Shown: positions 12,112 to 53,574, numbered from the stretch's first letter. The stretch is 53,574 nucleotides of DNA from Minisyncoccota bacterium (GCA_017991915.1 JAGOPQ010000002.1:1-53574); one strand, 5' to 3'. A program made the numbers and translations. Notes: generated by a model not told the origin, from the sequence alone.

Positions 12112-13575
12112 TTATATCATAGGTTCAGCTTCCTGTGAAGATTCGTCTATTTGTGTGCGTGACTTGCCTTCGATGATGGCTTTCTCTTCTGAACTTCGGA
12201 TGATTGTGGCTTCTTCTTCAGCTATCAACTGTGCTGCAGATTCTTTTGGAATAGAATATTTTCTGCGAGAAGCGGCTATGATTTCATCTCTATATGATGG
12301 ATGTGGTGGTGGTAATACTCGCAAAGTTTCTGCAGAGAATGGATCATACGACTCTCCATCTATTGTCATCTTGATATAAAATTCTGTCACCGCGAGGTTT
12401 ATCATATCCTTCACATCAAACAGCGGAGCGAATTCAGGCTTCAATTTTACTGCGTCTTCACCGCCGACACGGAAAGTAATAACTGAACCTACGTTTCCAA
12501 GTACAGCTTGGTGAACCTTGGGTATGATTTGCCCGACGTATTGGTGAGCGATGGTGAGATTTAGCCCGTATTTGCGAGCTTCGGACAATATGTTTTCAAA
12601 AGTTTGAGTGACTACGTTTTGGAACTCGTCCACATAGATGTAGAAATCTTTGCGTTCTTTTTCTGGTATGGCCGCGCGCTCCATGCCGGCTTGTTTGATC
12701 TTGGTCAAGAATATAGAGCCGAGGAAAGAAGAGTTTTCTTCACCAAGGCGACCCTTGGATAGGTTGATGAGGATTATTTTCTCTTCGTTCATCAACTTGC
12801 TGATATCAATTTTGTTTTCTTTCTGTCCGAATATGTTGCGTAGAAGTGGATCAGACAGGAATTGACCGAGTTTGTTTACTAGCGGGATGATTGCGTCAGT
12901 ATCGAATTTTTCAGACCAGTCCGCGAATTCAATGGCGAAGAATCTTTTCACCATGTCATCTTTGATGTACTCCACCACTTTCTGTCTGTAATTTCTATCA
13001 GTCAACATAGAAATCATTCCGCGCATTGTGGCGTGAGGATAGTCTAATAGAGCCAGACAGGTAAATCGAAAAACGTGCTCTAGGCGAGGAGTCCAGTTCG
13101 CTCCGAATTGTTTTTGGAAAACTTCGATGAGTCCTTGGGTCAATTGAAACTTGAACATTGGATCCACGTTGGCTAGTGGATTGAATGAAGCTGGGAAATC
13201 AATATCGGAGGGCTCAATAATACAGACATCCTCAATGCGTTCTTTAGGAACATAGTCCAATATTGCATCCACTACGTCACCGTGTGGGTCTATCAAACAA
13301 AGTCCATGCCCATAGGTGATGTCTTGGCGGATAAAAAGTTCTAGGAGTTTGGTTTTACCCACTCCAGACTTTCCGATGATGTACATGTGGCGACGTCGGT
13401 CTACGCGCTTTACGCCAAAAATAAATTTCTTCTCTTCTAGGGAGGCCACATAGTTTGTACGTCCAATAAAAGAAACCTCTTCGGGTTTTACTTTGCCGAA
13501 AACTGGAAGCTCTGGTGGTGGCGGACCGTATTTAATTATTTGAACTCGATTTGGTTTAGGCATTTGATTTTGCAA
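12112..13575 (-). CDS. P-loop ATPase of the VirD4/TraG/TrwB - HerA(DUF87)-like class (T4SS coupling-protein-like), paralog 1
   Basis: The protein has Walker A ([10 protein letters not shown]), CLIDPHGD and Walker B ([10 protein letters not shown]), then [14 protein letters not shown]. It is strongly similar to the ORF at 15421-17514. Confidence 0.75.
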
Positions 13576-13629: not shown

Positions 13630-15414
13630 CTAGTACACTTCTTGCTGGTAACATTTTTCGCAATAAACTATATCCTGTTTTTCGGTTGGAAATCCTGTTT
13701 TAAATTCCTCTCCGCAGTGCGTATCTCCATGGAAATGATTTACTTCGTTTTTATATTCCCCACTATCGTCAGTAGACCCAGCGCACATACATTTTCTATC
13801 GTATAGATTTATACCGAGGCGTAGTTTTAGGCGCTCCATTGTGCGACAAGCTGGACATAACGTTGGTAATGGTACACCAATTTTTCTGTAAAAATTTAAT
13901 TCATTTGGAAGAATTCGAAATGCCTTGGTGCACCCCTGATTGCAATTCATCTTATGCGCACATTCAAAAACCTCTTTAGTAATAGTATCTTCTACCCTTG
14001 AAATATCGTTTGGTATGTCTTCGGCTTTTATTGTTGGTTGGTAGTCCTTGGATTCCATATCCTTCCAGCGGTAACCTTGGGCCAGTGCTTCTTCTTTGGT
14101 TAATGGAAAATATTCCTGAGCTATAGTTTCATTGTATGCCCATGGGCTAAATTCACCTGGAAAAAATTCTCCATATTTATAGATTTTCCCAGTTTTGTCT
14201 ACATAGGGCATGGCATTCATGTGCGCAATGATTTTTGGAACTAGTTCATTGTATTCCTCTTTGGAATATTGTTTATTGAGTATGCAATATTGTTTTTTCT
14301 TTAGCCCAATACATCCAAAAATATTTTCTGAACCCCTGCAGGTCATAGTGTATTCAGTGTTGTGAGAAGATTCTTGAGTAAACCATGCAAATTTTAAATT
14401 ATTTACACCAGATCCACAGGAAATAGATTCATATACAAGTTCTGCTGCGTCTCCCCAATTGGAATAATCATAACAATCTTTTGATCCAGGAGTTTCTTGT
14501 AAATACTGGCAGTATCTACAATTTTCACTTTCACGAACCAAAAAGGAATCTTGAACATTTTTGGAATTTGTGACATATGAACCAGTAGAGTTTTCGTTCT
14601 TTACACCTTGGTGGTTTTTATTTGGAAACTTATTCCAAAATTCTTGTGAATCTGCCAATCCCTTTTCAATACCTTCTCTGGTGTGGAGTTGGTAAGCCTT
14701 AACCTTTTCATCGTATTCTTCTTTTGTGCATTTTTGGTTGAAAAAATAGTGACTTTTGTTTCGTAAATTTACTGACCCGAAGCAATCTAGACATCCTTGG
14801 CAGTCACGACAAAACCACAAGTCGCTGGACTCCACACATTGAGAAGAAAAATGAGTACGGTAACACCCTGAGACCCAGAAACTTTGGTAGCAGGACTGTG
14901 ACTTAGATACATGTGATACATCTACACAATCTTGTGTGGCATTGACGCTATTGGAATACATGCAATCCTCTGCGCCAGTTGAACCAAAAGTTAGGTAACA
15001 GTTTTTTGGGTCTGTGGCGTTGTTTACATATGGGCTACCTACTCCACGGATGACATTTACAGACTTGAAAGGAACTTCCAACATTAACTCATACATTTGG
15101 GTCAGAAACGGTTGGGACCAATCAATTTCTTTACCATAATCCATCGCATCCCATACATCTGAAATCCAAATATCTCTATCGTAGACCTTTACTGGTGACT
15201 CAGGGGCATACATAGAAAAAATTTCTTTTCCAGAATAATCGCATTTCCTTTTATAGAGTCCTCTTTCATTACGAAATAGCCAGCGTCGTTGAGCACGACA
15301 CATTGGGCAGAAAGTCGGTGGTGGAACTTTTACTTTTTCGTAGAAATTAAAATCTTCCGAATCTATCGTAAAGTCTTTTTTGCAATTCTGACAGTTTCTG
15401 GTTTCAGTATTCAT
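13630..15414 (-). CDS. Cys-rich protein bracketed by two copies of one zinc-ribbon module, function unknown
   Basis: I count 33 Cys in 594 aa. The N-terminal module is CQNCKKDFTIDSEDFNFYEKVKVPPPTFCPMCRAQRR..LYKRKC. The C-terminal module is CNQGCTKAFRILPNELNFYRKIGVPLPTLCPACRTMER..LYDRKC. The centre holds Cys spaced about 9-14 residues apart. Confidence 0.7.
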   Translation of the reverse strand: MNTETRNCQNCKKDFTIDSEDFNFYEKVKVPPPTFCPMCRAQRRWLFRNERGLYKRKCDYSGKEIFSMYAPESPVKVYDRDIWISDVWDAMDYGKEIDWSQPFLTQMYELMLEVPFKSVNVIRGVGSPYVNNATDPKNCYLTFGSTGAEDCMYSNSVNATQDCVDVSHVSKSQSCYQSFWVSGCYRTHFSSQCVESSDLWFCRDCQGCLDCFGSVNLRNKSHYFFNQKCTKEEYDEKVKAYQLHTREGIEKGLADSQEFWNKFPNKNHQGVKNENSTGSYVTNSKNVQDSFLVRESENCRYCQYLQETPGSKDCYDYSNWGDAAELVYESISCGSGVNNLKFAWFTQESSHNTEYTMTCRGSENIFGCIGLKKKQYCILNKQYSKEEYNELVPKIIAHMNAMPYVDKTGKIYKYGEFFPGEFSPWAYNETIAQEYFPLTKEEALAQGYRWKDMESKDYQPTIKAEDIPNDISRVEDTITKEVFECAHKMNCNQGCTKAFRILPNELNFYRKIGVPLPTLCPACRTMERLKLRLGINLYDRKCMCAGSTDDSGEYKNEVNHFHGDTHCGEEFKTGFPTEKQDIVYCEKCYQQEVY

Positions 15415-15420
15415 ATAAAT

Positions 15421-17514
15421 TTATTCTAATATTTTTCTTAATACATCTTCGGGTACTTCACGGATTTTCTTTGGTGCGCTTTCAGTAGAAGGAGCCGGTG
15501 TTGGGGTTTCAATTTTTGGTTGCGGAGTTGGTGCTGGTTTGGGTGCAGGTGGAGGAGTTGGGATCGGTGTAGCAATCGGAGCAGTTTTCGCTATCAGATC
15601 CTTTAGCTTGTTCATTTCTTCTGGCGTTGCAGCTCTGTCTTTTGTATTAGCAATCACCTCTTTTGGTTTATCCTTTAGAATATTTATTGATACGGGTGGT
15701 GGTGTAGGCTTGGCCACAGGGGTGACTTCTGCTACCTTGTCTCCACTCATTGTTTTATTTAGGATTTCTTTTAAAGCTGGATTTTCGTTTCTAGATTTGG
15801 GTTTGTCATGTGAAAAAACTTTCTTGATTCCAGAAAGAATTCCATCTTTTCTCTTTGGCTCTGAATTATTATTTTTAGCTGAGTGAGCATTCGCGCGTTC
15901 GGGATGTCTCTCACCAGTTTTTTCTTCTTCAACGTTTTCGGATTTGAATTCTATACCCAAGTCCGCAAGTGGTTTGTAGAATTTTGCATCATCTCTTTTG
16001 CTTGGCTGGTTTAGTTCTTTGCTATTGTTTACTTTTATTTCTCCAGATTTTATTTTTGCTACGCATTCTTTGCAGTATACTGATCGGCCCGGTTCTGGCT
16101 TGAATGGTACTGTCTTCTCTAGTCCACAAGCTGAACATATGATAGGGAACTTCCCTACTTCTCCACCGCTTCCTCCGCCTGATGGTGCGAAATCTCCGAG
16201 TGACATTCCACTCCAATCATTTATTTCTTTCTCCACTGCTTCTCTGGGTTTACAATAAAGCTCACGGGAAGATGCGATAACTCCATCTTCTACAGACTGG
16301 TCATTCTTCTTTGCCATCGGTGGCAGTGTGCGTGCAGAAAACGGACGTGAGGTGACGCCGTCTATCATTAGCTTCAAATATATTTTGTAGTTTGGCAGGT
16401 TCACTATGTCACTCGGGGTGAACTCTGGATCAAATTCTTTTTCCAAGAAATCTGCATCATCAGAACCCACTCGGAAAACTATCATCGTACCCACGTTGCC
16501 GAAGACAGCGTCACGCACAGCAGAGCTCTTGTCAGAGATAAGCTGGGCGGTGTATTGGTGCGCCACAGTCAGGTTTAAGCGGTATTTACGAGCTTCGGAC
16601 AAAATACCGGCAAAGGCGTCGGTGACGAAGTTTTGGAATTCGTCCACGTATAGGTAGAAGTCTTTACGTTCATCTTCAGGGATACGCACGCGCTCCATGG
16701 CCGCGAGCTGGATCTTGGTGATAATCATACCTCCCAAGAGTGCAGAATTGTCCTCACCTATTCTTCCTTTGGACACATTCACTAGGAAAACTTTTCCTTC
16801 GTTCATGATGTCAAAAATATTTATTGTACTTTGTTGTTGGCCGACTACGTTGCGGATGATAGAAGTAGACAAGAATTGACCGACTTTATTTTGAATCGGA
16901 GCGATGGCTTCATTTCTAAATTTTTCTTGCCATGCCTCGTACTCGTGCACCCAAAAAGCCTTGATGACTGGATCTTTCAAGTTGTTTATGATTTTCTGTC
17001 GGTAATCTTTGTCTACTAGCATTCTAGGAATGCCGAGGAGTGTGGTGCCCGGAGTGTCTAGGAGCGCCAGAATACAATTGTTCAAAATGTATTCCATTCT
17101 GGCAGACCAAGCGTTTGCCCAAATCTTGGTGAATATTCCCATGAGTCCAGAGGCTACGAGGTGTTTGTATTTTGGATCAATCAATTCTAGAACGTTGAAG
17201 CCGATGTGGTAGTCCGTATCTGCTGGGTTGAAATATATGACATCCTTCACGCGATGAAGTGGAATAGCGGAGAGAACTTCTTCTACGAGCTCGCCGTGTG
17301 GATCTACCACGCAGACACCCTCACCATTTCGGATGTTCTGGATGATCATGTTGAACATGAGCACAGATTTACCTGTTCCAGATTTTCCGAGGATGTAGAC
17401 ATGCTGACGGCGGTCTTTGCGCTTGATACCAAAAAGAGTGTTCTTGTCTCTAAAAGTAGAGAGCCCAAGATACGTGATATCTCTGTTCATTGGTATTTCG
17501 GGAACGTCAGCCAT
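15421..17514 (-). CDS. VirD4/TraG/HerA-like P-loop ATPase, paralog 2, with a C-terminal zinc ribbon and Pro-rich tail
   Basis: The protein has Walker A (ILGKSGTGKS), CVVDPHGE and Walker B (FYLYVDEFQN). About 250 extra residues follow, containing CSACGLEKTVPFKPEPGRSVYCKEC and PIATPIPTPPPAPKPAPTPQPKIETPTPAP. Confidence 0.75.
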   Translation of the reverse strand: MADVPEIPMNRDITYLGLSTFRDKNTLFGIKRKDRRQHVYILGKSGTGKSVLMFNMIIQNIRNGEGVCVVDPHGELVEEVLSAIPLHRVKDVIYFNPADTDYHIGFNVLELIDPKYKHLVASGLMGIFTKIWANAWSARMEYILNNCILALLDTPGTTLLGIPRMLVDKDYRQKIINNLKDPVIKAFWVHEYEAWQEKFRNEAIAPIQNKVGQFLSTSIIRNVVGQQQSTINIFDIMNEGKVFLVNVSKGRIGEDNSALLGGMIITKIQLAAMERVRIPEDERKDFYLYVDEFQNFVTDAFAGILSEARKYRLNLTVAHQYTAQLISDKSSAVRDAVFGNVGTMIVFRVGSDDADFLEKEFDPEFTPSDIVNLPNYKIYLKLMIDGVTSRPFSARTLPPMAKKNDQSVEDGVIASSRELYCKPREAVEKEINDWSGMSLGDFAPSGGGSGGEVGKFPIICSACGLEKTVPFKPEPGRSVYCKECVAKIKSGEIKVNNSKELNQPSKRDDAKFYKPLADLGIEFKSENVEEEKTGERHPERANAHSAKNNNSEPKRKDGILSGIKKVFSHDKPKSRNENPALKEILNKTMSGDKVAEVTPVAKPTPPPVSINILKDKPKEVIANTKDRAATPEEMNKLKDLIAKTAPIATPIPTPPPAPKPAPTPQPKIETPTPAPSTESAPKKIREVPEDVLRKILE

Positions 17515-47063: not shown

Positions 47064-47135
47064 GGCCTGGTAGCCAAGTGGTAAGGCATTCCTCTGCAAA
47101 AGGAATATACGGCGGTTCGATTCCGCCCCAGGCCT
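47064..47135 (+). tRNA. tRNA-Cys (anticodon GCA)
   Basis: The acceptor is GGCCTGG/CCAGGCC, the anticodon stem is TTCCT/AGGAA with loop CTGCAAA, and the T-arm is GGCGG-TTCGATT-CCGCC. The discriminator is U. Confidence 0.9.
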
Positions 47136-47174
47136 CAGGGTTATTTGATAAAATAATAGTGATGAACTATAATT

Positions 47175-47256
47175 GCCCGAGTGGCGGAATTGGTATACGC
47201 GCACGACTTAAAATCGTGTCTCGCAAGGGATGTGGGTTCGACCCCCACCTCGGGCA
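47175..47256 (+). tRNA. tRNA-Leu (anticodon TAA), type II
   Basis: The acceptor is GCCCGAG/CTCGGGC, the anticodon stem is CACGA/TCGTG with loop CTTAAAA, and the variable arm is long. Confidence 0.9.
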
Positions 47257-47287
47257 CTTGTTTGTGAAGTAGAAGAATTGTTTGTTT

Positions 47288-47360
47288 GCGCCCATAACTC
47301 AGCTGGTAGAGTAGCTCCCTCTTAAGGAGAATGTCCCAGGTTCGATCCCTGGTGGGCGCA
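47288..47360 (+). tRNA. tRNA-Lys (anticodon CTT)
   Basis: The acceptor is GCGCCCA/TGGGCGC, the anticodon loop is CTCTTAA, and the T-arm is CCAGG-TTCGATC-CCTGG. Confidence 0.9.
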
Positions 47361-47361
47361 C

Positions 47362-47382
47362 AAAAGTACCGATGTACTTTTT
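47362..47382 (+). terminator. AT-rich hairpin plus T-run directly after tRNA-Lys
   Basis: The sequence reads AAAAGTACcgatGTACTTTTt (8-bp perfect stem). Confidence 0.35.
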
Positions 47383-47421
47383 GCGAGCCGCAGGCACGAC
47401 GGTGCCGAGGCGGGGCCGCGC
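47383..47421 (+). other. Isolated GC-rich imperfect hairpin inside the tRNA cluster
   Basis: The sequence is gcgagccgcaGGCACgacgGTGCCgaggcggggccgcgc, flanked by ttttt and aaaaa. The flanking runs are in the wrong order for a terminator on either strand. Confidence 0.35.
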
Positions 47422-47483
47422 AAAAATTCAACAGAATTTTATGTGTGGCCACAAAGCATGGATGTGTGTTAACGTAGAAATAT

Positions 47484-47565
47484 GGGCAAGTGGCGGAATT
47501 GGTATACGCGTTAGTCTTAGGAACTAATGTCGCAAGACTTGAGGGTTCGAGTCCCTCCTTGCCCA
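47484..47565 (+). tRNA. tRNA-Leu (anticodon TAG), type II
   Basis: The acceptor is GGGCAAG/CTTGCCC, the anticodon stem is TTAGT/ACTAA with loop CTTAGGA, and the variable arm is long. Confidence 0.9.
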
Positions 47566-48488: not shown

Positions 48489-48559
48489 GAGCGATTTGTT
48501 CGCCGAGTAGCCCTACCCTGCTTAGGAATCCCTAGAGCTTTTGGGCGAACAAATCGTTC
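48489..48559 (+). promoter_or_regulatory. 16-bp inverted repeat closing a 39-nt loop in the ~170-nt leader of the SPFH cassette
   Basis: The arm gagcgatttgttcgcc (48489-48504) pairs with ggcgaacaaatcgttc (48544-48559), with one G.U. A second hairpin, GCGCC-ccc-GGCGC (48600-48612), abuts the SD. Confidence 0.45.
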
Positions 48560-48627
48560 ACACAATTCACTACACGCGCGCCACAAGGCGACGCACTATG
48601 CGCCCCCGGCGCGGAGGAGATACACAA

Positions 48628-49503
48628 ATGCCTACACAAGACAGCACCTGGGACTTGGTCCTGGGGGGTGTCATTACCCTCATCCTGCTCATCTTCAGCA
48701 TCACTGCATTCCCGTCTGGAACGGGATTTCTCAATGAAGTATTCTATCTCTTGTTGATGTGCATCCCCTGGGGATGGCACTTCACAGGGTGGAAAACCAC
48801 CCAGGTGGGTTTCCGCTCTCAAGCTCTTTTGTTTGGAGCAAGGGTGAACTACTTCATGGGAGAAGGCCTTCACTACACGCCATGGCCAGCAGGACGCAAG
48901 GAAGTGGATTGCAGGGAGCAGGTGTTAAAGCTGGATCCAGTCAAAGCTTTCACAAAGGGCCGAGACGGTACTCCAGATGAAGTTGGACCAGAAGTGGAAG
49001 TGCAAGCAACCGTCACCAGAAGAGTGACGAACCTGCATGAATACTTCGACGTCAACGAGAAGGATATCAAGCAGTGGCTTGATGACACTCGCGACGAGGT
49101 CGTGCGCCACAAGGTTTCAGAGAAAACCCTGAGCCAAGCCCTCACTATGGGCTCTACTCTCGCAGTGGAGCTTCATTCAGCTCTGCAGGGGAAGAGTCAT
49201 TGGGGAATCGAAATCACTGGGGCAGCAATACCAGGTATCGCTCCGACTGACGAGAAGATCATGAAGGACCTCGCACTCAAGGAGGGCGAGGAACTCCAGC
49301 GCACTGGACAGCAGATCGAGGTAAAAAACTTTACCGAGATCATGAAGCAACTCATGGACGCTGGGTGCTCTCGTGAACAAGCCTTTGAACAGGCCCAACT
49401 CACGATCAAGAAGGCCACCAAGACGATTGACTCGAAGAGTCTGGTGGTTGATGCCACAACCGCATCCATCTTCGCAGGAATCCTCGGAGGGAAGAAGCCA
49501 TGA
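48628..49503 (+). CDS. SPFH/Band-7 (stomatin/prohibitin/HflK-like) membrane protein on GC-rich island 3
   Basis: GGAGGAG lies 8 nt upstream of the ATG. The protein has two N-terminal TM helices and SPFH-like blocks (FRSQALLFGARV...EGLHYTPWP...VDCREQVLKL....VEVQATVTRRV, WGIEITGAAIPGIAPTDE). Confidence 0.72.
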   Translation: MPTQDSTWDLVLGGVITLILLIFSITAFPSGTGFLNEVFYLLLMCIPWGWHFTGWKTTQVGFRSQALLFGARVNYFMGEGLHYTPWPAGRKEVDCREQVLKLDPVKAFTKGRDGTPDEVGPEVEVQATVTRRVTNLHEYFDVNEKDIKQWLDDTRDEVVRHKVSEKTLSQALTMGSTLAVELHSALQGKSHWGIEITGAAIPGIAPTDEKIMKDLALKEGEELQRTGQQIEVKNFTEIMKQLMDAGCSREQAFEQAQLTIKKATKTIDSKSLVVDATTASIFAGILGGKKP

Positions 49504-49937
49504 ATAAGGCTAGAAACCCTGCGTGGATTGCGGGGTCAATCGTTGGCATGTTGCTGGTCGTGATGGTTCTGGTCTTCGTCTTCACTCGTGGAAGTTCGAA
49601 TTCAACACGAGACGACAAGCAAGACACCGGCGGTCAGTCGGCGGGAACTGCAGCGGACACCGTGTATATGGCGCCGCGATTTCGGACCATGCGGGTGTTT
49701 GACAGCATTCCGCCCGAAGGCATCCGTCTTTATCTCCGACAGGGGTGGCAAGACTTCCCTCTGGGTGGAGCTATCACGATCCAGATGATCAACGAATCGG
49801 GAAGCCCTGTTGGTCCAATTCTGCATGATGAACCAGGTGTCCAACATGACTTTGGATTCCAACCCGACGGACTTTACATCATCCACGCCGACCCACAAGG
49901 GTCACGTAGGGGGGTAAGACTTTACAACCAATGGTAG
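49500..49937 (+). CDS. 145-aa bitopic protein translationally coupled to the SPFH gene, family not recognised
   Basis: The ATGA start overlaps the SPFH stop, and GGAGGG lies 8 nt upstream. The protein has one TM helix (WIAGSIVGMLLVVMVLVFVF), then a domain of about 100 aa with beta-strand-like patterns. Confidence 0.6.
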   Translation: MNKARNPAWIAGSIVGMLLVVMVLVFVFTRGSSNSTRDDKQDTGGQSAGTAADTVYMAPRFRTMRVFDSIPPEGIRLYLRQGWQDFPLGGAITIQMINESGSPVGPILHDEPGVQHDFGFQPDGLYIIHADPQGSRRGVRLYNQW

Positions 49938-49963
49938 TTAAACGATCTGCGCAATAATGCGCA

Positions 49964-49997
49964 AAGGGGGCGGACTCAACATCGAGTCTGCCCCCTT
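49964..49997 (+). terminator. Strong hairpin terminator closing GC island 3
   Basis: The sequence reads AAGGGGGCGGACTCaacatcGAGTCTGCCCCCTTtcacgtttt (14 bp, one G.U). A small GCGCA-ataa-TGCGC hairpin precedes it. Confidence 0.7.
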
Positions 49998-50035
49998 TCA
50001 CGTTTTAATTCCTTTTTACAAACCTTTATCTATCT

Positions 50036-50371
50036 TTATCTTGGAGGGTAAGTGGGATTATAACCATCCAACTCCACTTTTCCAGTTTCCGGCGTTATTC
50101 CATCAACCTTTAGAGTATTTAGAATCAAATTCATGATTGCGAACACTCCCATCATAATAGTAAGACCAATAATTCCCCAAACCATGTGCATCTTGCCAGT
50201 AGTTTTTGCTTCTTCATTGTCCCCATTCGAAATGAATTGGAAAACTCCATACAAGAAGTAAACCAACGCTAGGGCGAAAAGCAAAGTGATGATTGGATTT
50301 ACAATGAGTTTATTTATCTTCATTATAAACGAATCAAGATTTCCACTCGCAGCATACGCAATGTTTATCAT
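50036..50371 (-). CDS. Small two-TM TrbC/VirB2-like pilin-family protein (paralog 5, no signal peptide)
   Basis: The module is PIITLLFALALVYFLYGVFQFISNGDNEEAKTTGKMHMVWGIIGLTIMMGVFAIMNLI. An in-frame stop lies two codons upstream of the ATG. Confidence 0.6.
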   Translation of the reverse strand: MINIAYAASGNLDSFIMKINKLIVNPIITLLFALALVYFLYGVFQFISNGDNEEAKTTGKMHMVWGIIGLTIMMGVFAIMNLILNTLKVDGITPETGKVELDGYNPTYPPR

Positions 50372-50400
50372 AACTTACTATTGATACTTACTGCTTTAGA

Positions 50401-50793
50401 TTAATAAGGAACTGTTGGGAAATTGATGTTTGTGGTGTTGTTTAGTCCGAAAGTGTTAGTAACTATTCTAACAAGACCCCACATACCTACGATAACCACC
50501 AAGCCGATGATTCCGTAAATCATTCGGTTTCTTCCAGTAGTCTTCGCCTCTTCATCACTAGCGATAACGAATTGAACTACTCCAAACACGAAGTAAAGTA
50601 CTCCGAGGGCGATTAGAAATGGAAGGATTGCTCCCAAGATTTCATTGAACTTACAAATCAAACTCTGGATAGTTGTGATAGAACCACCAGTACATTGTGT
50701 AGGATTTTGACCAGTAACTTGGGCAAACGCCACCAATGGGGCATATCCTAGAACAAGACCTGACAATACGATTAATTTATTTTTCATAATCAT
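50401..50793 (-). CDS. Small two-TM TrbC/VirB2-like pilin-family protein (paralog 4)
   Basis: The signal peptide ends AFAQV. A Cys pair follows, then ILPFLIALGVLYFVFGVVQFVIASDEEAKTTGRNRMIYGIIGLVVIVGMWGLVRIV. Confidence 0.62.
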   Translation of the reverse strand: MIMKNKLIVLSGLVLGYAPLVAFAQVTGQNPTQCTGGSITTIQSLICKFNEILGAILPFLIALGVLYFVFGVVQFVIASDEEAKTTGRNRMIYGIIGLVVIVGMWGLVRIVTNTFGLNNTTNINFPTVPY

Positions 50794-50825
50794 TTTTTAC
50801 TAATAATAACTTATTGCGACCCCCA

Positions 50826-50853
50826 CCCGACTGAGTGACTTCAGTCATTCGGG
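50826..50853 (-). other. GC-rich hairpin in the predicted 83-nt leader of paralog 4
   Basis: The minus strand reads CCCGAatgaCTGAAgtcaCTCAGTCGGG, followed by tgggggtcgc. Confidence 0.3.
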
Positions 50854-50882
50854 CAGGTTTTAATAATTAATAATGTCTATAT

Positions 50883-50891
50883 ATTGTAGCA
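50883..50891 (-). promoter_or_regulatory. Extended -10 box (TGcTACAAT) inside the pilin-like array
   Basis: The minus strand reads gtgTGcTACAATatatag, about 25 nt downstream of the paralog 3 stop. Confidence 0.45.
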
Positions 50892-50915
50892 CACAACTTG
50901 CAAGTCGTCTGTGAA

Positions 50916-51752
50916 TTACTGACTTTTTAGCTGTGGAATGGCATATTCAATACCAAAGGTGGTTCCGACAATTTTAACCAATCCCCACACAGAAACCATC
51001 ACAACTAAGGCGATAATTCCCCACAACATAAACTGTCTACCCTTTTCTTTCTTTGCCTCTTCGTCACTATTTATTACGTATTGAACAACACCCCAGATAA
51101 ACATAGCCAAGGCTAGCGCAAATATAAGTGGAATGACAGATTTACTGATAATACAAATCACGTAATTAATCAAACTTTGCAAATTGGAATTCTTAACCAA
51201 ACTACACAATCCCCCGCTTGAGGCTTGTACGATACCACTACTCAAATTACTGATGTCTGGAGCTTGATTGGCAATACCAAAAGTATTTACAACAATAGCA
51301 ACGAGACCCCACATACCGAAAATCACGACTAGTCCAATAAGACCAAAAATAATTCGGTTTCTGCCTTCCTTTTTGGCTTCATCTCCCCCACCTATCATGT
51401 ACTGCACCACACCCCAAACAAAGTAGACCACCCCAAGTGCGACAAGCAGTGGAATCAAGGCATTCAAGATGGAACCGAGCTTACACAACAAATCTCCAAA
51501 GTCGTTTACGTTTGTAGCACAGACTCTACCAGAAGAACCTTGGTTGCTGGAAAAAATAGTTGATCCACTACCACCTCCAAAGGTTCCGTTGCTGTAGCAA
51601 CCAGTCGAAGTTTCCCACGTATCTGGTTCATCTGGATCACAGGGTAAGCCGAGTGCGTTTTGAGCGTTGGAAAAATTTGGTAAAATAGTAAAAACTAAAA
51701 CTAAAACAAGTAAGAATGCTTGAGCTATTTTAAATTTATTGAAGTTTTTCAT
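50916..51752 (-). CDS. Tandem-duplicated (double-module) TrbC/VirB2-like protein (paralog 3)
   Basis: Two complete modules lie in one ORF. The first is LIPLLVALGVVYFVWGVVQYMIGGGDEAKKEGRNRIIFGLIGLVVIFGMWGLVAIV. The second is VIPLIFALALAMFIWGVVQYVINSDEEAKKEKGRQFMLWGIIALVVMVSVWGLVKIV. Confidence 0.62.
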   Translation of the reverse strand: MKNFNKFKIAQAFLLVLVLVFTILPNFSNAQNALGLPCDPDEPDTWETSTGCYSNGTFGGGSGSTIFSSNQGSSGRVCATNVNDFGDLLCKLGSILNALIPLLVALGVVYFVWGVVQYMIGGGDEAKKEGRNRIIFGLIGLVVIFGMWGLVAIVVNTFGIANQAPDISNLSSGIVQASSGGLCSLVKNSNLQSLINYVICIISKSVIPLIFALALAMFIWGVVQYVINSDEEAKKEKGRQFMLWGIIALVVMVSVWGLVKIVGTTFGIEYAIPQLKSQ

Positions 51753-51759
51753 ATTTTTA

Positions 51760-52131
51760 TTAAGAAATTCCCAAGACAGTCTCAGAAATAAGTATAGCTA
51801 TAGCCCAAGCCCCGAGCAATATAGCTGCGCCAATAATAGTGTACAACAGTGATTTTTTTGCAGTTTCTAATTTTTCCGAATTTCCTTGGGCAGCCACAAA
51901 CAAGAATCCACTGTAAATCAAAGCTAGAGCAATGATGGGAATACCTATCTTTATTACTCCAATCAAAATGACTTGAATAAATTCTGGAATAGTTTTATAT
52001 GGAATTGGGGGACAAATTGTGCCCGGTTCACAGGTAATACCATCAGCATAAATTGTAGTTGGTAAACTAAAAACAACAAGTAAGCTACTTATAATTCTAT
52101 AGCTATGTTTCTGGAATAATTTCATAAACAT
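51760..52131 (-). CDS. Small two-TM TrbC/VirB2-like protein (paralog 2)
   Basis: The signal peptide ends IYADG and is followed by CEPGTIC. The module is IPIIALALIYSGFLFVAAQGNSEKLETAKKSLLYTIIGAAILLGAWAIAIL. The start could be 52143, 52131 or 52125. Confidence 0.58.
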   Translation of the reverse strand: MFMKLFQKHSYRIISSLLVVFSLPTTIYADGITCEPGTICPPIPYKTIPEFIQVILIGVIKIGIPIIALALIYSGFLFVAAQGNSEKLETAKKSLLYTIIGAAILLGAWAIAILISETVLGIS

Positions 52132-52144
52132 ATTGTATAACATA

Positions 52145-52753
52145 TTAAAATCCAATCCAACTTCCATTATAACCCACAATCAACAATATTGTTCTAATAA
52201 TTAGCCACGATGCTACAGCAATAACTAAACCCTTCACAACATCAACAAAAATACCCTTAGCTTTGCTCATGGACTCAGTACTACCCCCAGATGTAACCAT
52301 CAAAACGCCAGCGTAAGCAAACATTATAGCAGCAATTGGTAGAGCCATCTTGAACAGTAAAAACTGGATAACTGTATTTATAAGATTCATAAAAGCATTA
52401 AAATCACAGTCACCAGGATTTGCTGATGTTTTACAGGGGACCAAACCCTTACCATCATAGGGTGTTTTTGTTGTAGCTGAAGAATTTGTATTCGTATTAG
52501 TATTTGGATTTGGTGATGGATTTCCTGTATTTATCGGAACAGCATTGTTTGGTGCTGGAGAATCTGCTACCCAAGTACCCCCATCAGCATAACATTGATC
52601 TTCTGGATACCCTGGAGCAGTAGCGCCTTGGGAAGCTAGTGAAGGTAAGGTGCATGTACCCAATGGAACTTGAGCGGAAGAGATATTGGAAAAACCAAAA
52701 ATCAAAGCAAGCAACAAACTCGGGATTGATAATTTGGTAAAAATTTTTTTCAT
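52145..52753 (-). CDS. TrbC/VirB2-like protein with an extended Cys/Pro/Asn-rich ectodomain (paralog 1)
   Basis: The signal peptide ends SSAQV. The ectodomain has four or more Cys and an NPSPNPNTNTNTN tract. The module is LPIAAIMFAYAGVLMVTSGGSTESMSKAKGIFVDVVKGLVIAVASWLII. Confidence 0.58.
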   Translation of the reverse strand: MKKIFTKLSIPSLLLALIFGFSNISSAQVPLGTCTLPSLASQGATAPGYPEDQCYADGGTWVADSPAPNNAVPINTGNPSPNPNTNTNTNSSATTKTPYDGKGLVPCKTSANPGDCDFNAFMNLINTVIQFLLFKMALPIAAIMFAYAGVLMVTSGGSTESMSKAKGIFVDVVKGLVIAVASWLIIRTILLIVGYNGSWIGF

Positions 52754-52765
52754 AAATTACAAATA

Positions 52766-53574
52766 CTACTTGAGTAATAATAAATCTAGCTTTGAACTCG
52801 CGTCTCGTATGGCATTGTCGGCAGTTAAATTATTTGAAAGTACTCCGTCCACCATTCCTTTAAATATGTTATTCGTATCATCTGAAGATGGGTCCATCCA
52901 GCTACGTGCGTACAAAGCGGAAGGATAAAAAGTAGTATTGTATGCATCCACTTTTTTCACGGCCAACAAATCTCTTCTGGCTGGGGTCACGCCTAGCGTA
53001 CCAGAGAGCTTGGCTGCAAAGTCTCCGCTACTCATCAAGCCCGCAGCGGTGATAGCGGTAGTTAAATTTTTAGAAAATGCAGATATGGCAATACCTGTAA
53101 CCCGACCGGAAGTTAATTTAAAATTAGCATTTTTTATTTGAGGCAATGGCGCCACCATGAAATTCTGATTTGGATTTTTATTCACCAAATTTTGAAGCTC
53201 ACTTGCGTATCCGAAATAAAAGGCCAAATTCTCTGCACTAAAGGCATCACTAGAATTTGAGAATGACCTATTCCATGAATATACGTTCTTCACTGGATCG
53301 GCAAAATCTGTATAAAATTGTAAGACACTAGCTAGGTCATACTTGCCGACTGTTTGATCAAGCGAGGAAACAAAGAAGCCCTCCTTTTCAGACACGATGG
53401 GGTTCCCGGCTTGCATAAACAATGCTGAGATTATTTCTTTGGCATGAGCTACGTTCACAAACTGACCCATAGCTACAGCACTCTTGGTGACACTATTGGT
53501 GGCATCTTTTTTGGTTAGAAGGGGCACCATATTTATCAAATCATCCCAATAAACCGGAGGATTCGTGATACCGT
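52766..53574 (-). CDS. Extracellular solute-binding protein (ABC-type, family-1-like), 5'-truncated by the window edge
   Basis: The frame stays open to position 53574 (..GITNPPVYWDDLINMVPLL..). SBP-like blocks are present (AFYFGYASELQ, MVAPLPQ, GIAISAFSKN, PARRDL). Confidence 0.55.
   Translation of the reverse strand, partial: GITNPPVYWDDLINMVPLLTKKDATNSVTKSAVAMGQFVNVAHAKEIISALFMQAGNPIVSEKEGFFVSSLDQTVGKYDLASVLQFYTDFADPVKNVYSWNRSFSNSSDAFSAENLAFYFGYASELQNLVNKNPNQNFMVAPLPQIKNANFKLTSGRVTGIAISAFSKNLTTAITAAGLMSSGDFAAKLSGTLGVTPARRDLLAVKKVDAYNTTFYPSALYARSWMDPSSDDTNNIFKGMVDGVLSNNLTADNAIRDASSKLDLLLLK

Follow-up and report, generated by a model that had tools for sequence, protein, structure and literature searches.

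We analyzed a 53,574-nucleotide (nt) stretch of DNA from a Minisyncoccota bacterium (GCA_017991915.1 JAGOPQ010000002.1:1-53574), referred to at its full length as the window, in which positions 50036-52753 of the minus strand hold a tandem array of five consecutive genes encoding six helix-loop-helix modules that resemble the pilins of type IV secretion systems (T4SSs). The genome amounts to 567 kb in 34 contigs at 94% completeness, and the array sits on contig C34. Homologues carry the labels Candidatus Nomurabacteria, Paceibacterota or Patescibacteria, and the host is an ultra-small Nomurabacteria-type bacterium of the candidate phyla radiation (Paceibacteria). A first-pass annotation made from the DNA sequence had counted five minus-strand genes and six modules, and this count was borne out by gene calls, Pfam and a six-frame scan of the whole genome, which returned the same six modules and a seventh on contig C5. 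The genes, numbered from g5 at the upstream end to g1, and the features inside the array are listed below, where aa stands for amino acids and head for the N-terminal part preceding the hairpin core.

52145-52753, minus strand: g5, 202 aa; signal peptide, the longest head (about 90 aa) with four Cys and a NPSPNPNTNTNTN tract (the tract already noted in the first-pass annotation), one hairpin core
51760-52143, minus strand: g4, 127 aa; plausible signal peptide ending in TTIYA and followed by DG, short CxxxxxC head, hairpin core
50916-51752, minus strand: g3, 278 aa, two modules; signal peptide, head of about 60 aa with four Cys, hairpin, 30-40-aa linker with a Cys pair, second hairpin
about 51246-51533, minus strand: g3 module a, first pilin module of the in-frame fusion
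about 50922-51218, minus strand: g3 module b, second pilin module of the in-frame fusion
50794-50915, minus strand: 122-nt spacer before g2
50401-50793, minus strand: g2, 130 aa; signal peptide ending in VAFA and followed by QV, 23-aa head with a Cys pair, hairpin core
50036-50371, minus strand: g1, 111 aa; no signal peptide, 17-aa conserved N-terminus, hairpin core, 25-aa tail

The start of g4 was taken as the ATG located 1 nt past the g5 stop codon, with a TTG at 52179 as the alternative.

Pilin family and predicted topology

All five genes matched PF18895 (T4SS_pilin), with scores ranging from 24.0 to 55.4 bits (g1 29.7, g2 35.1, g3 55.4 over two stretches, g4 28.6 and g5 24.0; gathering cut-off, 26.6 bits). 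Weaker matches to PF04956 (TrbC/VirB2; cut-off, 27.9 bits) were obtained for g4 (24.9 bits, E 2.4e-5, profile positions 8-96 of 98), which is the best TrbC/VirB2 match in the array, and for g5 (17.0 bits, E 0.007). Among the 82 positional homologues from the genus, every one matched PF18895 at E <= 0.01 and 33 matched PF04956 at the same threshold (best E 6.4e-8). These profile matches support the assignment of the five genes to the VirB2/TrbC-like pilins of T4SSs, as the first-pass annotation had proposed. The array proteins share with Agrobacterium VirB2, RP4 TrbC and F TraA a signal peptide, two hydrophobic helices and a short charged loop, and the profile similarity to this PF04956 group is weak but real, as seen for g4 and for the 33 homologues. 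In contrast, the diderm VirB2, TrbC and TraA systems usually have a single pilin gene each and lack Cys-containing heads, large ectodomains and multi-module fusions.

Hydropathy analysis gave two hydrophobic helices per module, with two such modules in g3, and revealed hydrophobic leaders at the N-termini of g5, g3 and g2 but not of g1. AlphaFold modeled g2 as a hairpin of helices 42-77 and 81-114 with a predicted local distance difference test (pLDDT) score of 80-89 in the core, and g3 as two hairpins (85-120/124-158 and 191-227/232-265) with a disordered head and linker; over the hairpin cores of both models the pLDDT was about 75-89. From g5 to g1, the heads contain 4, 2, 4 (plus 2 in the g3 linker), 2 and 0 Cys residues, all even numbers. 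This parity recurs in 539 homologues, of which 231 have an even, non-zero Cys count and 53 an odd one (216 versus 48 among proteins with a head; another 147 such proteins lack Cys). The earlier description of four genes with a signal peptide and paired Cys holds, with leaders evident from hydropathy in g5, g3 and g2 and plausible in g4. Because of the leader, the heads are predicted to lie outside the cell and the charged loop inside, and the Cys pair of the g3 linker would also be outside since it follows the second helix of the first module; together with the even Cys counts, this speaks against the cytoplasmic heads that the first-pass annotation had considered as a possible counter-indication.

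The same annotation had described a common loop motif for all modules. We found [GS]xx[DE]EAKxxG[RK] followed by GxWGLV in g3a, g3b and g2 and, loosely, in g1, whereas the loops of g5 (GGSTESMSKAKG) and g4 (QGNSEKLETAKK) differ from it.

Order and orthology of the array genes

For comparison, we used the arrays of 18 genomes of the same genus, and 41 relatives for presence or absence; the nearest relative is L038, a metagenome contig from the Joint Genome Institute (JGI). The copy-number comparison across relatives that had been proposed at the outset found the array in 40 of the 41 genomes and the same five positions in all 18 loci of the genus, which share one order: a long-headed gene first, a short Cys-headed gene second, a gene of one to three modules third, a well-conserved gene fourth and a leaderless gene fifth. 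Another 16 loci, one from an additional genome of the genus and the rest representing 15 other genera within the order, have this layout too. In a tree of 108 modules, the modules clustered by position and not by genome (24 label changes against 65 in shuffles, with 0 of 200 shuffles as low), and the g5-type and g4-type clades received Shimodaira-Hasegawa-like approximate likelihood ratio test (SH-aLRT) support of 96-97. The paralogous cores of the array are 12-65% identical and fall into two deep classes, one comprising g3a, g3b, g2 and g1 (34-65%) and the other g5, g4 and the seventh module on contig C5 (25-32%).

Identity within orthogroups is 17-46% for the N-terminal parts and 54-66% for the cores, and the heads carry large indels, in agreement with the earlier view that heads vary more than cores. 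The checks for gene conversion and for selection that had been suggested along with that view gave no evidence of conversion or of positive selection. A DNA repeat search for conversion tracts found no repeat longer than 29 nt in the array, which indicates that the copies are old. Against L038, the ratio of nonsynonymous to synonymous divergence (pN/pS) ranged from 0.00 to 0.85, below 1 in every segment of heads and cores alike; because most genes approach saturation at synonymous sites, these ratios say no more than that positive selection left no sign. Three additional DNA runs from the same wastewater study yielded contigs identical over the array, at low depth, and the public runs are too thin for relative expression or population variation. 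Judged by order, trees and divergence, the array is not a shuffling repertoire; it is an ancient set of non-redundant genes in fixed order whose heads drift.

Proteins of the g5 orthogroup are 122-617 aa long in the genus, with heads of about 40 to 540 aa and fn3 domains in some. For g4, the core shares 96% identity with its L038 counterpart. The gene at position three has one to three modules across the genus; g3 module a clusters with g2-type modules and module b with single-module genes of position three, a g3a-like module is a separate gene in two relatives, and about 580 multi-module relatives are found in the protein database. As a fusion of neighboring genes, g3 suggests that its two modules would be adjacent in the assembled structure. 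A 40-residue indel separates its head from that of the L038 orthologue. In a wastewater metatranscriptome (run X8), one 201-nt contig was identical to the g3 signal-peptide and head region (51500-51700) at a word depth of 35.

The last gene, g1, starts with MINIAYAAS and has no signal peptide, as described before. Its open frame is just 112 aa, so that no upstream start is available. The earlier reading of this N-terminus as the relic of a lost signal peptide did not stand, because a leaderless last gene is the rule across genera and the N-terminus of g1 is under purifying selection: residues 1-17 of g1 match L038 at 100% identity despite a synonymous divergence (pS) of 0.61 (pN/pS 0.04), most arrays end with a headless gene in the genus, in the order and among public loci alike, and in most public arrays with enough sequence the module of the last gene starts within about 20 residues of the protein start. 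The same two observations rule out that g1 is a decayed gene. By comparison with its orthologues, g1 belongs to a conserved orthogroup that was leaderless ancestrally.

The most conserved member is g2. It is 97% identical to its L038 orthologue at the amino acid level, with a 100% identical head, and at the nucleotide level it is 90-95% identical against 70-80% in the flanks; its pS is 0.23, compared with 0.5-0.76 for the other array genes. We found 558 homologues of g2; throughout the best 120, identity is 61% or higher with almost complete coverage. Its codon adaptation index (CAI) of 0.717 is the highest of the five (background 0.663 ± 0.031; mean + 1.7 standard deviations). In addition, the 122-nt spacer before g2 is the only long gap of the array, and spacers of 77-203 nt precede the g2-type gene in 15 loci of the genus, where most other array gaps are at most 30 nt. 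Here the spacer combines GGTCG(C) at 50817-50821 with a GC-rich hairpin and, at about 50883-50892, an extended -10-like box reading TGcTACAAT. A TATAAT-type box is present in 15 of the 15 spacers and its extended form, [TG]nTAYAAT, in 12, while GGTCG occurs in 14 against a genome background of 0.28 per kb. GGTCG(C/T) is often flanked by ATTATTA and lies 15-61 nt downstream of the TATAAT-type box (equivalent spacers of L020-L037), and the combination TAYAAT-N10-70-WGGTCGY has just two occurrences elsewhere in the genome. The argument for an internal promoter is drawn from this conservation across loci, since a scan with sigma-70 and terminator consensus sequences gave matches no more frequent than in shuffled sequences; the RNA fold of the g3-g2 spacer has a z-score of -1.76, which is unconvincing by itself. 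We conclude that g2 appears to have its own conserved promoter-like spacer and is probably the major subunit.

An orphan solute-binding protein and the T4SS genes

Directly upstream of the array, the window ends within one more gene of the same strand:

52766-53574, minus strand: 3' two-thirds of the gene for a membrane-anchored solute-binding protein (SBP; SBP_bac_1/SBP_bac_8, CUT1 sugar type), cut by the window end

The SBP stop codon precedes the g5 start by 12 nt. The fragment matched SBP_bac_1 with E 3.9e-8, the full-length L038 orthologue (431 aa) with E 1.5e-16, and the closest solved relatives are sugar and maltose binders (E 7.6e-6 and weaker). The SBP gene lies immediately ahead of the array, in the same orientation, in all 18 loci of the genus and in all 16 further loci. 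Among public loci, whose titles name Nomurabacteria, Paceibacterota, Wolfebacteria, Taylorbacteria and others, the adjacency holds in 74 of 75, with a median gap of about 5 nt and a modal array of five genes. The SBP was found in 39 of the 41 relatives. Permeases of PF00528 (BPD_transp_1), however, gave no match in the genome itself (94% complete) or in 39 of the 41 relatives, with all 14 controls positive, and no permease adjoins the SBP gene in L038; as judged by these searches, the SBP is an orphan without a permease of the ATP-binding cassette (ABC) type. Further upstream, a gene for a small S-adenosylmethionine (SAM)-dependent methyltransferase lies on the same strand in 72 of 73 public loci (L056-L135) and adjoins the SBP gene in 69 of them. 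Its L038 counterpart (L038:2392-2904) encodes 170 aa, and in the assembly of the window this part is beyond the contig end. In two genomes of the genus, G008 (99% complete) and G014 (92%), VirB4 and one pilin-module match are kept, and SBP and array are absent. The linkage of methyltransferase, SBP and array is thus shown by synteny. A survey of Patescibacteria pilin arrays (PMC12102498) does not mention any solute-binding protein, and a literature search for the combination of SBP and pilin array returned nothing relevant.

Core T4SS genes are located on contig C5 beside dnaN/dnaA. They include a VirB4-like ATPase (P-loop_TraG, E 6.2e-24; AAA_10), a PrgI/VirB3-like protein beside it (PrgI, E 7.3e-8) and a 761-aa polytopic protein without a Pfam match in the VirB6 position, a cluster that matches the published layout of Patescibacteria T4SSs near the replication origin (PMC12102498). 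VirB4 was found in 39 of the 41 relatives at 72-91% identity, and one PF18895-module gene always adjoins virB4 in them. In the present genome, this gene (C5:16476-17576, minus strand) encodes a 366-aa fusion that combines one PF18895 module with a leader, a Cys head and a VirB1-like lytic transglycosylase domain (SLT_2). Two coupling-protein ATPases, identified by TrwB_AAD_bind, T4SS-DNA_transf and TraG-D_C matches, are encoded in the window:

12112-13575, minus strand: VirD4/TrwB-like coupling-protein ATPase
15421-17514, minus strand: VirD4/TrwB-like coupling-protein ATPase

The first-pass annotation had suggested that these ATPases may partner with the array, which is possible but unproven; the coupling protein of S. 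epibionticum is not essential (PMC12102498). Between the two genes lies an open reading frame of 594 aa without a Pfam match (13630-15414, minus strand).

On its downstream side, the array borders a cassette of an SPFH/Band-7 gene and a gene for a 145-aa partner with a single transmembrane (TM) helix (48541-49937), which faces g1 in convergent orientation across the following element:

49963-49998: inverted repeat of 15 bp, GC-rich, separating the SPFH-cassette gene from convergent g1; 93% complementary, 6-nt loop

The repeat is likely a bidirectional terminator. The cassette had been called foreign, and its GC content (0.536 versus 0.406 for the window) agrees with this, but L038 also has a cassette at this position, a very divergent one (GC 0.549; proteins 33-36% identical, flanking genes 84-94%). 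The cassette looks like a fast-replaced or horizontally exchanged element in a fixed slot. An Rfam scan of 47.0-53.6 kb found no match within the array and only a cluster of four tRNA genes (47064-47565), located between IF-2 and the gene for a TIG-domain surface protein.

A proposed heteromeric pilus or conduit and its alternatives

We favor, at a probability of roughly 0.6, the reading that the array encodes the parts of a heteromeric VirB2-like pilus or conduit made up of a major subunit (g2) and four specialised partners, assembled by the unlinked VirB4 system at the interface with a host cell and with the orphan SBP as a partner. As read from the relatives, the array belongs to a conserved Paceibacteria operon that comprises the small SAM-methyltransferase, the membrane-anchored orphan SBP and then about five VirB2-like paralogues. 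Each paralogue would insert as a helical hairpin with its N-terminal head and C-terminus outside and the charged loop inside, and disulfide pairs would stabilise the heads. The paralogues would be non-redundant, with g2 as the probable major subunit, g5, g4, g3 and g1 as accessory or "minor" subunits with distinct heads, and g3 covalently joining two neighboring protomers. Most likely, the subunits would be pulled from the membrane and built into a heteromeric pilus or conduit by the monoderm-type T4SS encoded near dnaA/dnaN on contig C5. The resulting structure would serve contact with the host cell, and the SBP would probably dock on it or work with it, binding a host-derived glycan or sugar. 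As a functional analogy only, type IV and chaperone-usher pili also combine an abundant, conserved major subunit with co-encoded minor subunits, and an internal promoter or leader raises the level of the major one; their protein families and assembly machines are unrelated.

Several observations weigh against this reading. Only four of the five genes exceed the PF18895 cut-off, g5 falling slightly under it, none attains the PF04956 cut-off and g1-g3 do not match that profile. A Foldseek search of the PDB with the g2 model returned generic helical matches only (best E 0.5), a profile search against PDB sequences gave nothing below E 1, and neither recovered a solved T4SS pilin; since the fold is so simple, these nulls are uninformative and neither support nor refute a pilin fold. 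The array on C34 is unlinked from virB4 on C5, the two are never adjacent in this order, and the one relative contig that holds both has them 247 kb apart. The absence of SBP and array from G008 and G014 reflects either joint loss or assembly gaps. As for g2, its rise in CAI is only mild, and recombination instead of expression could account for its low synonymous divergence and its identity island. The 201-nt contig over the g3 head is the sole expression evidence for the stretch. To our knowledge, no filament has been seen so far for any PF18895 protein.

The alternatives are less likely. The arrays of pilin genes have been suggested, by analogy with the virB2 paralogues of Bartonella and Anaplasma, to be interchangeable repertoires (PMC12102498), in which the cell would switch between alternative major pilins, or shuffle them, so as to vary its antigens or match different hosts, and the first-pass annotation had arrived at a similar diversified repertoire for antigenic or receptor variation. 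The virB2 clusters of Bartonella and Anaplasma phagocytophilum likewise contain several tandem copies that differ in sequence, and the present array shows some of what such a repertoire would predict, namely heads that are far less conserved than cores within orthogroups, g5-type heads from about 40 to 540 aa, the 40-aa indel of the g3 head and paralogue identities as low as 12%. However, the Bartonella and Anaplasma copies are read as antigenic or host-interaction variants, whereas the positions here are ancient orthogroups under purifying selection that keep the same order throughout the genus and in 15 other genera. Neither repeats nor conversion tracts were found, pN/pS is below 1 throughout, the g2 head is invariant, and the three further DNA runs, albeit at low depth, are identical over the array. 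Moreover, the two deep core classes argue for different structural roles, and the module fusions imply co-assembly, not alternation. We thus consider a repertoire of this kind quite improbable.

A T4SS-independent membrane device, in which the hairpin proteins would form a hetero-oligomeric channel or anchor that, with the orphan SBP, replaces an ABC permease for the capture or import of host compounds, is somewhat better placed, though still unlikely. The strict adjacency of SBP and array, which recurred at a gap of a few nucleotides in 74 of 75 public loci and in every locus checked in 16 genera, would be expected of such a device, and so would the absence of PF00528 from 39 of 41 genomes of which 39 encode the SBP, the distance from virB4 and the fixed composition under purifying selection. 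Yet the proteins are homologous to pilins and not to any transporter family, the operon has no ATPase or other energising component, these genomes carry a PF18895 module next to virB4, which ties the fold to T4SSs, and homologous arrays of Saccharimonadia lie inside the T4SS cluster (PMC10633639, PMC12102498). That the genes encode unrelated small two-TM proteins such as holins or immunity proteins, which merely resemble pilins, is hardly credible. A helical hairpin is a generic shape and the Foldseek matches are non-specific, but PF18895 was the only consistent family match and was found in 82 of 82 homologues, and the operon is conserved and chromosomal, with no phage or toxin context. The first-pass annotation had allowed for a better match to a holin-type family; in Pfam, no holin, immunity or other small two-TM family was matched at E < 0.01 by any of the five genes, and these results rule out a holin or other-family assignment.

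Arrays of this kind are already in print, as is the idea of an antigenic or host-range function, and the present locus is a further member. Wang et al. (2023) described, for Southlakia epibionticum, a T4SS cluster with predicted pilins that are essential (PMC10633639). Using PF18895 and PF04956 over 3,035 genomes, Quiñonero-Coronel et al. (2025) found 441 arrays in 383 assemblies, with 2-11 pilin genes and a mean identity of 25% (maximum 54%), reported linkage of pilin genes to virB4 in 1135 of 1948 assemblies, and proposed antigenic variation or adaptation to different hosts (PMC12102498); a 2025 review repeats this proposal and speculates on a pilus conduit (PMC12857230). The five adjacent genes studied here fit the published array definition (2-11 genes, tandem or one gene apart; PMC12102498). 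Their proteins belong to the same PF18895/PF04956 family as the arrays of S. epibionticum ML1 (SEML1_0006-0019) and Nanosynbacter lyticus TM7x ("Sec-secreted array"), and they are likewise tandem divergent paralogues, with core identities of 12-65%, in a monoderm host with an MPF-FATA-like T4SS and no detected relaxase. Unlike the published arrays, the present one lies outside the virB4 cluster and behind an orphan SBP, with a methyltransferase further upstream, and it has a position-orthologous, fixed membership, one two-module fusion and a leaderless last gene.

By itself, the locus is one more example of a published kind, and its interest lies less in the array than in the comparative refinements and in the coupling to SBP and methyltransferase. 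Because of the fixed order and orthology, the separately promoted and conserved g2, the leaderless end gene and the recurrent fusions, these "pilins" look like a fixed heteromeric kit, not like a repertoire for variation. A bolder extension of the favored pilus or conduit would make methyltransferase, orphan SBP and the roughly five hairpin proteins one apparatus, in which a permease-detached SBP acts on a T4SS-derived pilus or conduit in the capture or import of host compounds; we hold this to be doubtful, and the mechanism of coupling is conjecture. Pilin arrays distinguish the Patescibacteria T4SS from other monoderm T4SSs, and that system is essential in the one species tested. If the extension were true, this enigmatic T4SS would gain a concrete substrate-side component.

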